Source: an uncultured bacterium
GTDB lineage: Bacteria > Chloroflexota > UBA5177 > JANWHV01
DNA: 64,000 nt
Direction: 5' to 3'
Assembly: GCA_963827235.1 (NCBI GenBank)
Contig: CAWHAE010000009.1
Span: 640,001-704,000 of the forward strand
Made by a program: the position numbers and the translations under genes. This document shows positions 44,415 through 46,535 of this stretch, piece by piece. Under the pieces are notes generated by a model, which saw only the letters and a list, made by a program, of their open reading frames with translations, was not told where the DNA came from and ran no database searches. The number at the start of each line of letters is the position of its first letter. Position 1 is the stretch's first letter.

Positions 44415-45029
44415 ATGCACCCGGCGGCGCCCTTCGATGCAGGTGACTGCACCGGCCGGTCAAGCAGCGCCGCGGGAGAGGATGGACCTGACCCAGGCGT
44501 AGCTGCCGGACAAACCCGTGTAACGCCGGCGCCGGCTCAGAGCGTTGACGCGCTCTACCGTGCTACCTACCAGAGGGTGTATGCCTACTTGCGGACGCGC
44601 ACGACGAATGAGGAAGACACTGCGGACTTGACACAGCAGGTGTATCTGCAGGCGTTACGGGCCTGGCAGCGCCGCCCGGCCGACCCTGCAGCACATTTGC
44701 CCTGGTTGTTCCGTATCGCGCGAAATGCAGCCATCGACCTTCATCGAAGGCGGCGCGAGAGCGTGCCCTGGGACGCGCTCCCGGCGGCAATGCAGCCGTT
44801 CTCGGGCGATCAGCCCGAGAACGGGCTCCTGCGCCGAGAAGTGCTCGATCACCTGGCAGGGGTGGTGGAGGCACTGCCCATGGCCAAGCGGGATCTGCTC
44901 GCACTGCGCTTCGCTGCCGACCTCTCGTATACGCAGATCGCCGCGGTGATCGGCAAGCGCGAAAGCGCGGTGAAGAAGGAAATGAGCAGGCTACTCAGAG
45001 ACCTCAAGGAGCGGCACCATGCGGATTAG
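44415..45029 (+). CDS. ECF sigma-70 factor (start uncertain)
   Basis: RVYAYL, ADLTQQVYLQAL, WLFRIARNAAID, LALRFAADLSYTQIAAVIGK. Confidence 0.88.
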   Translation: MHPAAPFDAGDCTGRSSSAAGEDGPDPGVAAGQTRVTPAPAQSVDALYRATYQRVYAYLRTRTTNEEDTADLTQQVYLQALRAWQRRPADPAAHLPWLFRIARNAAIDLHRRRRESVPWDALPAAMQPFSGDQPENGLLRREVLDHLAGVVEALPMAKRDLLALRFAADLSYTQIAAVIGKRESAVKKEMSRLLRDLKERHHAD

Positions 45030-45080
45030 GCGCTCACTTTCCGCCGCCGCCTACCCGAGGACGACCCAGAGGCGACGGAG

Positions 45081-46535
45081 TTGGTGGCAGAACTCAGAGC
45101 CCTGTATCGTGTCTCGCCTCCACCCGATCACCGGCGGCAGTTGGCCGGCACGCTGGAGCAGGAGGCACGGGAGATACGGGGAGCGATCGTGCTGAGCTAC
45201 GATCGCCGGCGCGGTCGCGAGCGCGCCGGGACCAGCAGCGGACGACCGGCACCGTGGGGTATGGTAGCGAGCATCATCGCGGTGCTCGGGCTCGTGACTG
45301 GGGTGCTTGTCGTTGGCAAACCCGCGGACGGCCCGGCCCGGCCTGCGGTTGGCGCTCACGGGCCGGTCTCCGAAATACCGCCTGGAGCGAAGATCGCGCT
45401 TACCATCGACGGCTACCTACAGACGCATGTCGTCGAGCCGGAGCTTCTCCTGCTCATGCAGCGCTTCCACGCTCGAAGCGGAGCTATCGTGGTGGAGCGT
45501 CCCAGTGACGGGGCGATCCTCGCCCTGGCCTCGCAACCTAGCAGCGACACGCGAAGCTGGCAGCAGGTCGCGGCACAGCATGCCTTCGGCACCTTCCCTG
45601 CTGCCGCGAGCAACGAGGCCTCGGCTCCGGGTGAAACCATGATGGCGCTGCTCACGGCGATCGGCTTCGATACCGGCAGCTTCGACGAACAGACCGAGGT
45701 CGACGACTCCGGTCAACTGAAGACCGGCGGCATCACCGTGCGGGACTGGTGCTACCCAACATGCCCTTTCGACGGTCCGCAGAACGCCGGGCAGATGTTG
45801 CACTGGGCTTCCAGCGTGTCCGCCGCACGATTCGCCCAGAGAATCCCTGTTCAGCAGCTCTACCGCTACCTCGAAGGCTTTGGATTTGGTGAGACACAGG
45901 CAGGACCCGGACTGCCCAACGCAAAGCCCGGGGTGCTGATCGAGCCGTCCACGACAGTCGGGGGCAAACAGGTTCCTAACAGCCGGTGGAACCCGGCCTA
46001 TCGCACGGCCACGGCCCTCGGCGGCACGGGCCTCACGGCCACGCCGCTGCAACTGGCAAACGCCTACGCGGCGCTTGCCAACGGCGGCCGCTTGATGCAG
46101 CCTCATCTGGTGCAGTCCTACACACTCAACGGCAAGACCACGATGGTGCAGCCCCAGGTTCTTCATATCGTGTTTCGTCAGAGCGACACTGCCGAGCGCG
46201 TGACCAGCGTGCTGGTGCATGAGGCGGCGCATGGCGAGGCCTGCATGGCACTGGTGCCCGGCTTTGATGTGGCCGCCAAGACCGGCGCGGCTCTGAGCTA
46301 CAACTGGCCGCAGACCAGCGCCACCGCCGTAGCCTATGGCCCCGTGGGGGAGGCCGACCCGGCGCACAGGTTCGTGGTGCTGGTGCAGCTCCAGCTTCCA
46401 GACATTCCCTATGGTTCGGAGACCGCGGCGCCGGCCACACGCGAGATTCTGCGCCAGCTCTTCCAGCACTATGGATTGCAGCCGGATCCCAAGCACGTCC
46501 AGCCGGACCAAGCGTGCGCGGGTCCGAACGACTAG
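45081..46535 (+). CDS. Single-TM protein with degenerate PBP transpeptidase domain (candidate anti-sigma factor)
   Basis: LTIDGYLQ, GAILALAS.P, FGFG, TPLQLANAYAALANGG.LMQP, AKTG, AAP; the SxxK position reads ETMM. Confidence 0.8.
   Translation: MVAELRALYRVSPPPDHRRQLAGTLEQEAREIRGAIVLSYDRRRGRERAGTSSGRPAPWGMVASIIAVLGLVTGVLVVGKPADGPARPAVGAHGPVSEIPPGAKIALTIDGYLQTHVVEPELLLLMQRFHARSGAIVVERPSDGAILALASQPSSDTRSWQQVAAQHAFGTFPAAASNEASAPGETMMALLTAIGFDTGSFDEQTEVDDSGQLKTGGITVRDWCYPTCPFDGPQNAGQMLHWASSVSAARFAQRIPVQQLYRYLEGFGFGETQAGPGLPNAKPGVLIEPSTTVGGKQVPNSRWNPAYRTATALGGTGLTATPLQLANAYAALANGGRLMQPHLVQSYTLNGKTTMVQPQVLHIVFRQSDTAERVTSVLVHEAAHGEACMALVPGFDVAAKTGAALSYNWPQTSATAVAYGPVGEADPAHRFVVLVQLQLPDIPYGSETAAPATREILRQLFQHYGLQPDPKHVQPDQACAGPND

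Follow-up and report, generated by a model that had tools for sequence, protein, structure and literature searches.

What role could a penicillin-binding protein (PBP) fold without its catalytic residues play directly behind a sigma factor gene of the extracytoplasmic function (ECF) type? This question is raised by a stretch of 64,000 nucleotides (nt) from an uncultured Chloroflexota bacterium (assembly GCA_963827235.1, contig CAWHAE010000009.1, positions 640,001 to 704,000 of the forward strand), which is referred to here as the window. Around the locus the G+C content is about 66%, and two abutting genes on the + strand span 44.3-46.5 kb. The first encodes the sigma factor and the second a single-pass membrane protein with a degenerate class B transpeptidase (TP) domain, which is called pseudo-PBP in the following. 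Our study indicates that the two genes probably form a lineage-restricted pair of ECF sigma factor and anti-sigma factor, in which the pseudo-transpeptidase ectodomain would act as the sensor. The recurrence of the pair with the same overlapping stop and start, the predicted binding of the N-terminal module to the sigma factor, and the loss of the catalytic residues throughout a single clade are the principal factors behind this reading.

The sigma factor gene and the gene overlapping it

The sigma factor gene is located at 44310..45029 (+), with GTG 44310 as the inferred start and TAG at 45027-45029 as the stop codon. In the initial annotation of this locus, made from the sequence alone, the start had been set at ATG 44415; this remains an alternative, whereas GTG 44310 is the better fit to the conserved first residues of the orthologous sigma factors. 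The open reading frame (ORF) 44247..45029 (+) matches Sigma70_r2 (PF04542, 7.7e-13) and Sigma70_r4_2 (PF08281, 1.5e-06) in Pfam, and no match to region 3 or region 1 was found there for the sigma protein. Against the NCBIfam model TIGR02937 (sigma70-ECF) it scores 76.1 bits at a cutoff of 42.9, and the protein belongs to the ECF (group 4) sigma-70 factors. The best-scoring specific NCBIfam model is that of the BldN family (TIGR02952); with 82 bits, far under the curated equivalog cutoff of 206.45, the window sigma factor is not an equivalog member of this family. The nearest solved chain is 6dxo_A (1.5e-22), from the BldN-RsbN entry.

The callable ORF of the pseudo-PBP, the candidate anti-sigma factor, lies at 45084..46535 (+) and encodes 483 residues from GTG 45084 or 484 residues from TTG 45081; the database protein P0001 is identical to the product from 45084. 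The sole Pfam match of this protein is PF00905 (Transpeptidase; 6e-39, residues 134-457, profile positions 1-298 of 299), and the PBP-dimer or pedestal domain PF03717 gave no match in it at E<=0.01. Direct translation has shown a single transmembrane (TM) helix, WGMVASIIAVLGLVTGVLVVG, at 45255..45317 (+) with an Arg-rich segment before it. Because this Arg-rich stretch precedes the helix, the positive-inside rule would place the N-terminus inside and the TP domain outside. Only about 35 residues separate the TM helix from the strand that precedes the TP domain.

The ectodomain (45480..46451, +) was identified as a catalytically degenerate TP fold of the class B PBP type by PF00905, by AlphaFold2 (AF2) and by Foldseek. 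The AF2 model, built from a 108-row alignment, has a pLDDT >90 over approximately residues 113-501, and the top Foldseek matches in the PDB are class B TP domains, namely those of C. difficile SpoVD (7rcz, E 7.9e-28), P. aeruginosa PBP3 and N. gonorrhoeae PBP2. The residue numbers of the N-terminal module, of the AF2 model and of the complex discussed below are counted from 45030, and the unchanged in-frame translation 45030-46532 was used for the comparisons.

The catalytic motifs were read by direct translation. The codons at 45627-45644 give PGETMM, in which ETMM (45633..45644, +) replaces SxxK, the nucleophilic Ser being changed to Glu and the Lys to Met. At 45801-45821 the translation is HWASSVS, with ASS (45807..45815, +) in place of SxN, and at 46272-46292 it is AAKTGAA, in which the KTG motif (46278..46286, +) is kept. 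The pseudo-PBP is not a functional class B PBP; it has PF00905 and KTG, and the pedestal domain, SxxK and SxN are all missing. These three motif readings, the single TM helix and the class B TP domain without a dimerization domain had all been proposed in the initial annotation, and each of them holds.

The pseudo-PBP gene was found directly behind an orthologous ECF sigma gene, with a stop/start overlap of 11 nt, in all three family members for which the context was retrieved (the window, P0004 and the type in the congeneric genome G004), and the linkage seen in the window is thereby found to recur. In the window the overlap has the form ATGnnnnnTAG and lies at 45019..45029 (+). P0004 is found on two metagenome contigs, L106 and L105, where the overlap is at 2696/2706 and 319/329, respectively; in G004 (L109) it is at 1492/1502, and in G003 (L108), a further congener which will be considered with the module, at 1406/1416. 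The sigma factor of L106 is 75% identical to that of the window, and that of G004 is 62% identical by alignment and 64% by tblastn. The G004 contig ends 78 codons into the gene after sigma, and the resulting fragment, P0125, is the N-terminus of P0126. P0125 is clustered at 90% with P0008; the full-length protein in that cluster is P0126 (509 residues), which consists of the module and the pseudo-PBP and reads PGQIME. The flanking genes differ among the window, P0004 and G004 loci, and the sigma/pseudo-PBP pair is therefore the conserved unit. A metagenome scan with the N-terminal alignment returned only two loci, both of P0004. The scan of genome contigs with the full-length family alignment, whose patterns are generic PBP motifs, kept 80 loci, which were essentially all canonical PBPs and included no family member.

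Reading frame of the window copy

The homologues start about 20 residues earlier than the callable ORF of the window, with the pattern M-x10-LPEDDP-x-L-xx-L-x-A-D-L, and the residues L8, P9, E10, D11, D12 and P13 are invariant in 10 of 10 alignment rows, the window included. In the window this motif is encoded directly after the sigma TAG and in the sigma frame, and the sigma gene and the downstream ORF are divided only by that TAG. It belongs to a stretch without a start codon (45030..45083, +), which encodes RRRLPEDDP..., is in frame with the callable ORF and aligns to the homologues from their residue 6. The orthologous start, ATG 45019, is shifted by one base relative to the frame in which the remainder of the downstream gene is read. 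The window copy has thus either undergone a real and recent frameshift or carries an assembly indel. The initial annotation was silent on this frameshift, as it was on the very narrow distribution of the system.

Two further explanations of the frame problem were considered and rejected. For a programmed frameshift, no slippery heptamer was found in 45019-45051, and for a read-through of the TAG giving a sigma/anti-sigma fusion, the orthologous sigma factors were found to end at the same position.

The most serious rival to the proposed pair arises from this frame problem, and it bears on the window copy only. According to it the gene is broken by a real frameshift of 1 nt, which separates the conserved N-terminus from its start codon, and irrespective of the role of the family in other genomes, the sigma factor would here have a truncated regulator or none at all. 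Its strength lies in the distance from ATG 45019 to the LPEDDP codons, which is 32 nt in the window versus 33, 30 and 30 nt in three related loci, in the absence of any ATG, GTG or TTG between the sigma TAG and 45081 in the window sequence, and in the gene caller's product P0001, which begins at 45084. A broken gene must at the same time be reconciled with a start-less stretch that keeps every invariant residue of the motif, and with a remaining ORF that is open for 501 codons. Since the motif is fully kept in the start-less stretch, the change must be either very recent or an assembly indel. We regard a broken window copy as unlikely, while giving it more weight than the other rival explanations.

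N-terminal module and its predicted binding to the sigma factor

The predicted sigma-binding module (residues 8-49; 45051..45176, +), as delimited by AF2 and the complex model, comprises the LPEDDP motif and two helices. The helices are found at residues 13-26 and 32-45/47 in both AF2 models, that is, in the one described above and in an earlier run with a 10-row alignment, which had a mean pLDDT of 36 and was used for its secondary structure only. There is no Cys or His motif (HxxxCxxC) in the module sequence, and the module is not a class I anti-sigma domain of the ZAS/RskA/RseA type. It is also not a class III (RsbN) domain, as no RsbN homology was detected and two helices are predicted instead of three. 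By its number of helices the predicted module looks most like the two-helix clamp of class II, a likeness on which no class assignment is based.

The complex of the window sigma factor (162 residues, 6-row alignment) with partner residues 1-75 (10-row alignment) was predicted in three runs along with three controls. The ipSAE values of the three runs were 0.83, 0.84 and 0.83, and the best of the controls reached 0.32. In the calibration, 58 of 80 solved complexes and 2 of 110 mismatched pairs attained the mark, counts which are only approximate here as custom alignments were used. The runs have at least 81% of their contacts in common, and the pLDDT of the partner is at least 70. In the modelled interface, partner residues 8-49 contact residues 2-40 (region 2) and 98-160 (region 4) of the sigma factor, and the module is sandwiched between sigma2 and sigma4 as described for anti-sigma domains (PMC7406223, PMC6101532). 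The model thus supports a binding of the N-terminal module of the partner to the sigma factor between regions 2 and 4. Such a model of sigma with the N-terminal segment had been named beforehand as a check on the anti-sigma role, and its outcome is favourable.

The module has a very narrow distribution. Among 401 sampled Chloroflexota genomes it was found only in G000, G003 and G004, which are all of one genus, and the match in a further genome, G090, covers the PBP part only. When 1.84 billion representatives were searched with a hidden Markov model (HMM) built on the N-terminal 153 residues, only the family, two short fragments and one spurious match were obtained. As far as searched, the system is restricted to one genus-level lineage of uncultured Chloroflexota.

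Within this lineage the module is also found in front of another kind of ectodomain. In the congeneric G003 (L108, G003:C92, 1096-2269) the same module and TM helix extend up to '...AGVRGA' and are then followed by a beta-propeller-like, non-PBP ectodomain, and the fused gene lies behind a 5'-truncated remnant of the orthologous sigma gene. This ectodomain is 42% identical to a secreted, beta-propeller-like protein of 402 residues from G007, for which there are weak Pfam propeller matches only. The arrangement suggests that the LPEDDP module is a separable unit which can be joined to different ectodomains.

Paralogous sigma factors of the same class, 43-47% identical, are each followed by an overlapping gene for a single-TM protein with a short N-terminus of acidic, Pro and helix character. 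When the N-termini of the family were compared with those of these partners (hhalign, A3 vs A9), a probability of 86% and an E-value of 5e-6 were obtained. One of the partners carries DUF4179 and DUF5643, one carries SnoaL_2 and another has no assigned domain (L112 G007:C24, L114 G015:C70, L119 G008:C1). Casas-Pastor et al. 2021 (PMC7826278) count DUF4179 among the hallmarks of anti-sigma factors. The contig G007:C24 holds two such paralogous sigma genes, 2.5 kb apart.

These observations bear on the possibility that the PBP-like protein is not an anti-sigma factor at all. It could be a co-transcribed envelope protein under the control of the sigma factor, such as a non-catalytic scaffold or decoy in peptidoglycan synthesis, with an N-terminus that binds some other target. 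Co-transcription by itself does not establish that the partner is an anti-sigma factor, no known anti-sigma domain was recognised in its N-terminus, and in the part covered of the supplement to the ECF classification PBPs occur twice, only as context genes (of ECF42s15 and ECF214s18). An envelope protein of this kind would, however, leave unexplained why in G003 the module stands in front of an unrelated ectodomain, in a gene located behind what remains of the orthologous sigma gene, why the complex model passes its controls, and why the partners of the paralogous sigma factors share the layout, one of them with DUF4179. The absence of the pedestal domain points in the same direction; in class B PBPs, this domain and the TM helix jointly engage SEDS polymerases. 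A role as a mere envelope protein is considered improbable on these grounds, and the anti-sigma role suggested in the initial annotation has gained from the linkage in three of three contexts, from the module heading a non-PBP ectodomain in G003, and from the complex model with its controls.

Loss of the catalytic residues and origin of the ectodomain

A search of 5.8 billion proteins gave 646 matches among 8000 scored candidates, and the best 120 of the 646 matches were considered. The top nine (P0001-P0009) have PF00905 only, and among the matches listed P0002-P0009 are 43-70% identical to the window protein. The next group consists of canonical Chloroflexota class B PBPs (bPBPs) of 600-670 residues with PF03717, which are 38-41% identical to the window protein by global alignment and 39-46% identical over 79-89% of the query by BLASTP. 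The canonical paralogue in the source genome itself, an open frame of 674 codons, is 43% identical.

In an alignment of 108 rows (A8), made up of 99 canonical relatives and the 9 family members, every one of the canonical rows has the Ser and Lys of SxxK, the Ser and Asn of SxN, the Glu of PGE and the K, T and G of KTG (100% in each column). The nucleophilic Ser, present in 99 of 99 canonical rows, is lost in nine of nine family members, where the column reads E/E/E/Q/Q/Q/Q/Q/Q. The Lys of SxxK, likewise K in 99 of 99, reads M/M/M/M/Q/M/K/E/Q and is lost in eight of nine. For SxN, the Ser column is AAAAAASGS (lost in 7/9) and the Asn column SSSNNNNDD (lost in 5/9), and the Glu of PGE is lost in 7/9. 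On the other hand, KTG is largely retained in the family (K in 8/9, T in 9/9 and G in 7/9), and so are most of the structural Gly and Pro columns. Among the 36 proteins P0010-P0045 the pattern PGS..K is present in 35, the exception, P0025, being a fragment without that region.

A quick maximum-likelihood tree was computed with IQ-TREE from 39 rows (P0001-P0024 and P0026-P0040, the fragment P0025 and the rows beyond P0040 being left out). The nine pseudo-PBPs form one clade (SH-aLRT 100) with long internal branches within the canonical bPBPs of the lineage, and their sister is P0015/P0018 (99). The seven family members that are complete at both ends are open over their full length, with no internal stops. 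Taken together, the sequences argue that a single duplication of a bPBP gave rise to the family, that the pedestal domain and the catalytic residues were then lost and a new N-terminus gained, and that the family has been under constraint since. The conservation of the SxxK loss, which had been set as a further check, is answered by a Ser lost in every family member and kept in every canonical row; the loss defines the clade and is not simple decay.

The replacement of the nucleophile is consistently E or Q and not random, and with KTG mostly kept the ectodomain might still be regarded as an enzyme with a remodelled active site, for example a peptidoglycan hydrolase with Glu or Gln in the nucleophile position, and not as a passive sensor. 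E and Q are not interchangeable as catalysts, however, the general-base Lys is lost in eight of nine members and the SxN Ser in seven of nine, and we know of no precedent for an enzyme with such a remodelled PBP active site; this explanation is therefore considered very improbable. Least probable of all is the drift of a duplicated PBP gene towards a pseudogene with a merely coincidental sigma neighbour, as the lost catalytic residues and the tiny, patchy family that would suit it are outweighed by nine members without the Ser that nevertheless share 43-70% identity, keep many structural positions invariant and are free of internal stops, by a monophyletic clade with long internal branches, and by a sigma linkage and overlap geometry that recur in three of three contexts.

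Proposed mechanism

In the preferred reading, that of a sigma/anti-sigma pair with a pseudo-transpeptidase sensor, the sigma factor, which consists of sigma2 and sigma4 only, would be made together with the single-pass membrane protein through the overlapping stop and start. The cytoplasmic LPEDDP motif and the two helices would act as a clamp on the sigma factor, placed between its regions 2 and 4, and would keep it at the membrane. The ectodomain, presumably derived by duplication from the lineage's own bPBP and no longer acylatable, would serve as a sensor that binds a ligand or a partner. Through regulated proteolysis or a conformational change, a signal from the cell envelope may then release the sigma factor, which would switch on its own promoter and a regulon. 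Judging from the fold, the signal would most plausibly be a stem peptide or a precursor of peptidoglycan, or else a beta-lactam-like compound that binds non-covalently; the loss of the Ser, the Lys and SxN could equally mean that the signal is a protein partner.

A candidate for the autoregulatory ECF promoter lies upstream of the sigma gene at 44230..44256 (+); this motif, ATGTCACC-N15-CGTT, includes the TTG 44247 at which the mechanical ORF begins. The pattern TGTCACC-N15-CGT(C/T) is found with identical spacing upstream of the orthologous sigma gene in three of three aligned loci (the window, L106 and G004). It resembles ECF promoters and may be the promoter of the sigma factor itself.

A further-reaching proposal is that the locus represents an undescribed type of ECF anti-sigma factor. 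Such a type would combine a minimal LPEDDP clamp, unrelated in sequence to classes I-III, with a catalytically dead TP domain, the receptor to which peptidoglycan precursors or beta-lactam-like compounds would bind non-covalently, and its ectodomains would be exchangeable between congeners (PBP fold or beta-propeller). This proposal is a possible one and is put forward tentatively, with clearly less confidence than the pair itself.

A number of points weigh against the pair as proposed. Complexes of sigma and anti-sigma factors from other families have been solved, and a part of the complex score may reflect likeness to them. The module itself is of low confidence in the AF2 monomer. The first 153 residues of the homologue P0005 gave no Pfam family at E<=10; a PDB profile search with the module gave two noise matches only (HPr, E 0.8) and no RsbN; and the ESM Atlas gave a best value of 0.84 to unnamed clusters, with nothing interpretable. 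The genomic context covers three of the nine family members. The sigma orthologue and the module were not found in the congeneric G001 and G002, which are 87% and 83% complete. The G003 fusion lies on a single contig of 2.27 kb with a 5'-truncated sigma gene, and it may reflect a true exchange of domains or a chimera of the assembly. In the window copy the conserved ATG does not share the frame of the gene body, and if the indel is real, translation from GTG 45084 would omit LPEDDP and the interface residues 8-18, or the gene may be inactive. The loss of the Ser, the Lys and SxN may also weaken a non-covalent binding of D-Ala-D-Ala or beta-lactams. Finally, the promoter-like motif has 7 matches in the genome against 5 for the reversed control, and as there is no genome-wide enrichment, no regulon can be named.

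Flanking repeat and neighbouring genes

The sigma/pseudo-PBP cassette of 2.5 kb is bracketed by the two copies of an 88-nt direct repeat, at 44016..44103 and 46518..46605, which are 80-85% identical to each other and are the only two copies in the 8-Mb genome. The downstream copy overlaps the stop of the pseudo-PBP gene and is placed before an acylphosphatase/SRPBCC gene. The repeat has no match in Rfam and folds no better than its shuffles (z-scores -1.8 to 0), and the L106 cassette has no flanking counterpart of it. The repeat may be a trace of the insertion of the cassette or of a local duplication.

The acylphosphatase/SRPBCC gene (46514-47410) is a single ORF in which an acylphosphatase domain (residues 45-116) is fused to an SRPBCC/polyketide-cyclase-like domain (residues 149-290); its two halves match separate loci in the congeneric G002. 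About 1 kb upstream of the cassette, the segment 43046-44015 contains short overlapping ORFs only, as is typical of high-GC non-coding or degraded sequence. Further upstream, at 40129-43045, a gene of the PCMT (protein-L-isoaspartate O-methyltransferase) type with a long C-terminal extension converges on a minus-strand gene for an APH-like phosphotransferase, both by Pfam. The overlap of these two genes by about 270 nt suggests a mis-set stop or start, or another indel.

Comparison with known systems

The architecture had been described initially as one not recognised from earlier work. No anti-sigma factor with a transpeptidase domain was found in full-text literature searches, which led only to unrelated papers or the work on PbpP and covered the supplement to the ECF classification only in part. 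Neither penicillin nor transpeptidase nor PBP is mentioned in the main text of the ECF reclassification.

The window pair resembles canonical pairs of ECF sigma and anti-sigma factors (SigW-RsiW, SigV-RsiV and SigE-RseA) in having a sigma factor of sigma2 and sigma4, a co-transcribed single-TM partner, an N-terminus predicted to lie between sigma2 and sigma4, and an ectodomain that would face the envelope. A single TM helix is the commonest layout of anti-sigma factors and is found for 82 ECF groups (PMC7826278). Unlike the partners in the canonical pairs, that of the window has no class I anti-sigma domain. The class I domain is of about 90 residues and forms a three-helix bundle with a fourth helix, often with HxxxCxxC, whereas the window module has only about 40 residues in two predicted helices.

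A short, helical and non-zinc sigma-binding part, predicted in the case of the window protein, is common to it, to class II (CnrY/NepR) and to class III (RsbN). Class II is a short two-helix clamp that contacts sigma4 and sigma2, and RsbN is a single-pass protein with three helices, of which alpha3 lies between sigma2 and sigma4, and with a large ectodomain of unknown function (PMC6101532). In contrast to both classes, the window module has no sequence similarity to any PDB chain. With the class B PBPs of the same lineage (PBP2/PBP3/SpoVD) the window protein shares the TP fold; it differs from them by the absence of PF03717 and by the replacement of the N-terminus and TM helix with the LPEDDP module.

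ECF sigma/anti-sigma pairs are a major mechanism of signalling in bacteria, but what most anti-sigma ectodomains sense is not known. In the present case the fold of the ectodomain is well understood, and the ligands that it binds in nature have been identified as the D-Ala-D-Ala stem peptide and beta-lactams, so that the sensing hypothesis can be tested directly with purified protein. The short module and the apparent exchange of ectodomains are also of interest for the assembly of ECF circuits and for orthogonal switches.

A TP-like extracellular domain is also the receptor that controls transcription in BlaR1/MecR1 (PMC8092216). BlaR1, a multi-pass zinc-protease membrane protein, is acylated at the Ser and signals through its cytoplasmic protease domain to a repressor, whereas the window protein has one TM helix, no protease domain in Pfam and a Glu in place of the Ser, and its output would be a sigma factor. 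The nearest functional precedent is the PbpP-RsiP-SigP system of Bacillus thuringiensis, in which a PBP-fold sensor controls an ECF sigma factor through an anti-sigma factor; at native levels of expression, sensing needs the active-site Ser301 and the covalent binding of beta-lactams (PMC8092216). PbpP is a separate protein from the anti-sigma factor RsiP, whereas in the window the PBP fold is the ectodomain of the anti-sigma candidate itself and the Ser is gone. If the proposed reading is true, the transpeptidase fold would join the sensor domains of anti-sigma factors, and under the further-reaching proposal a PBP fold would be seen here for the first time as a directly fused part of sigma-factor signalling. 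The locus would further provide a natural receptor in which a PBP has turned into a pseudoenzyme, whereas PbpP and BlaR1 need an acylated Ser.

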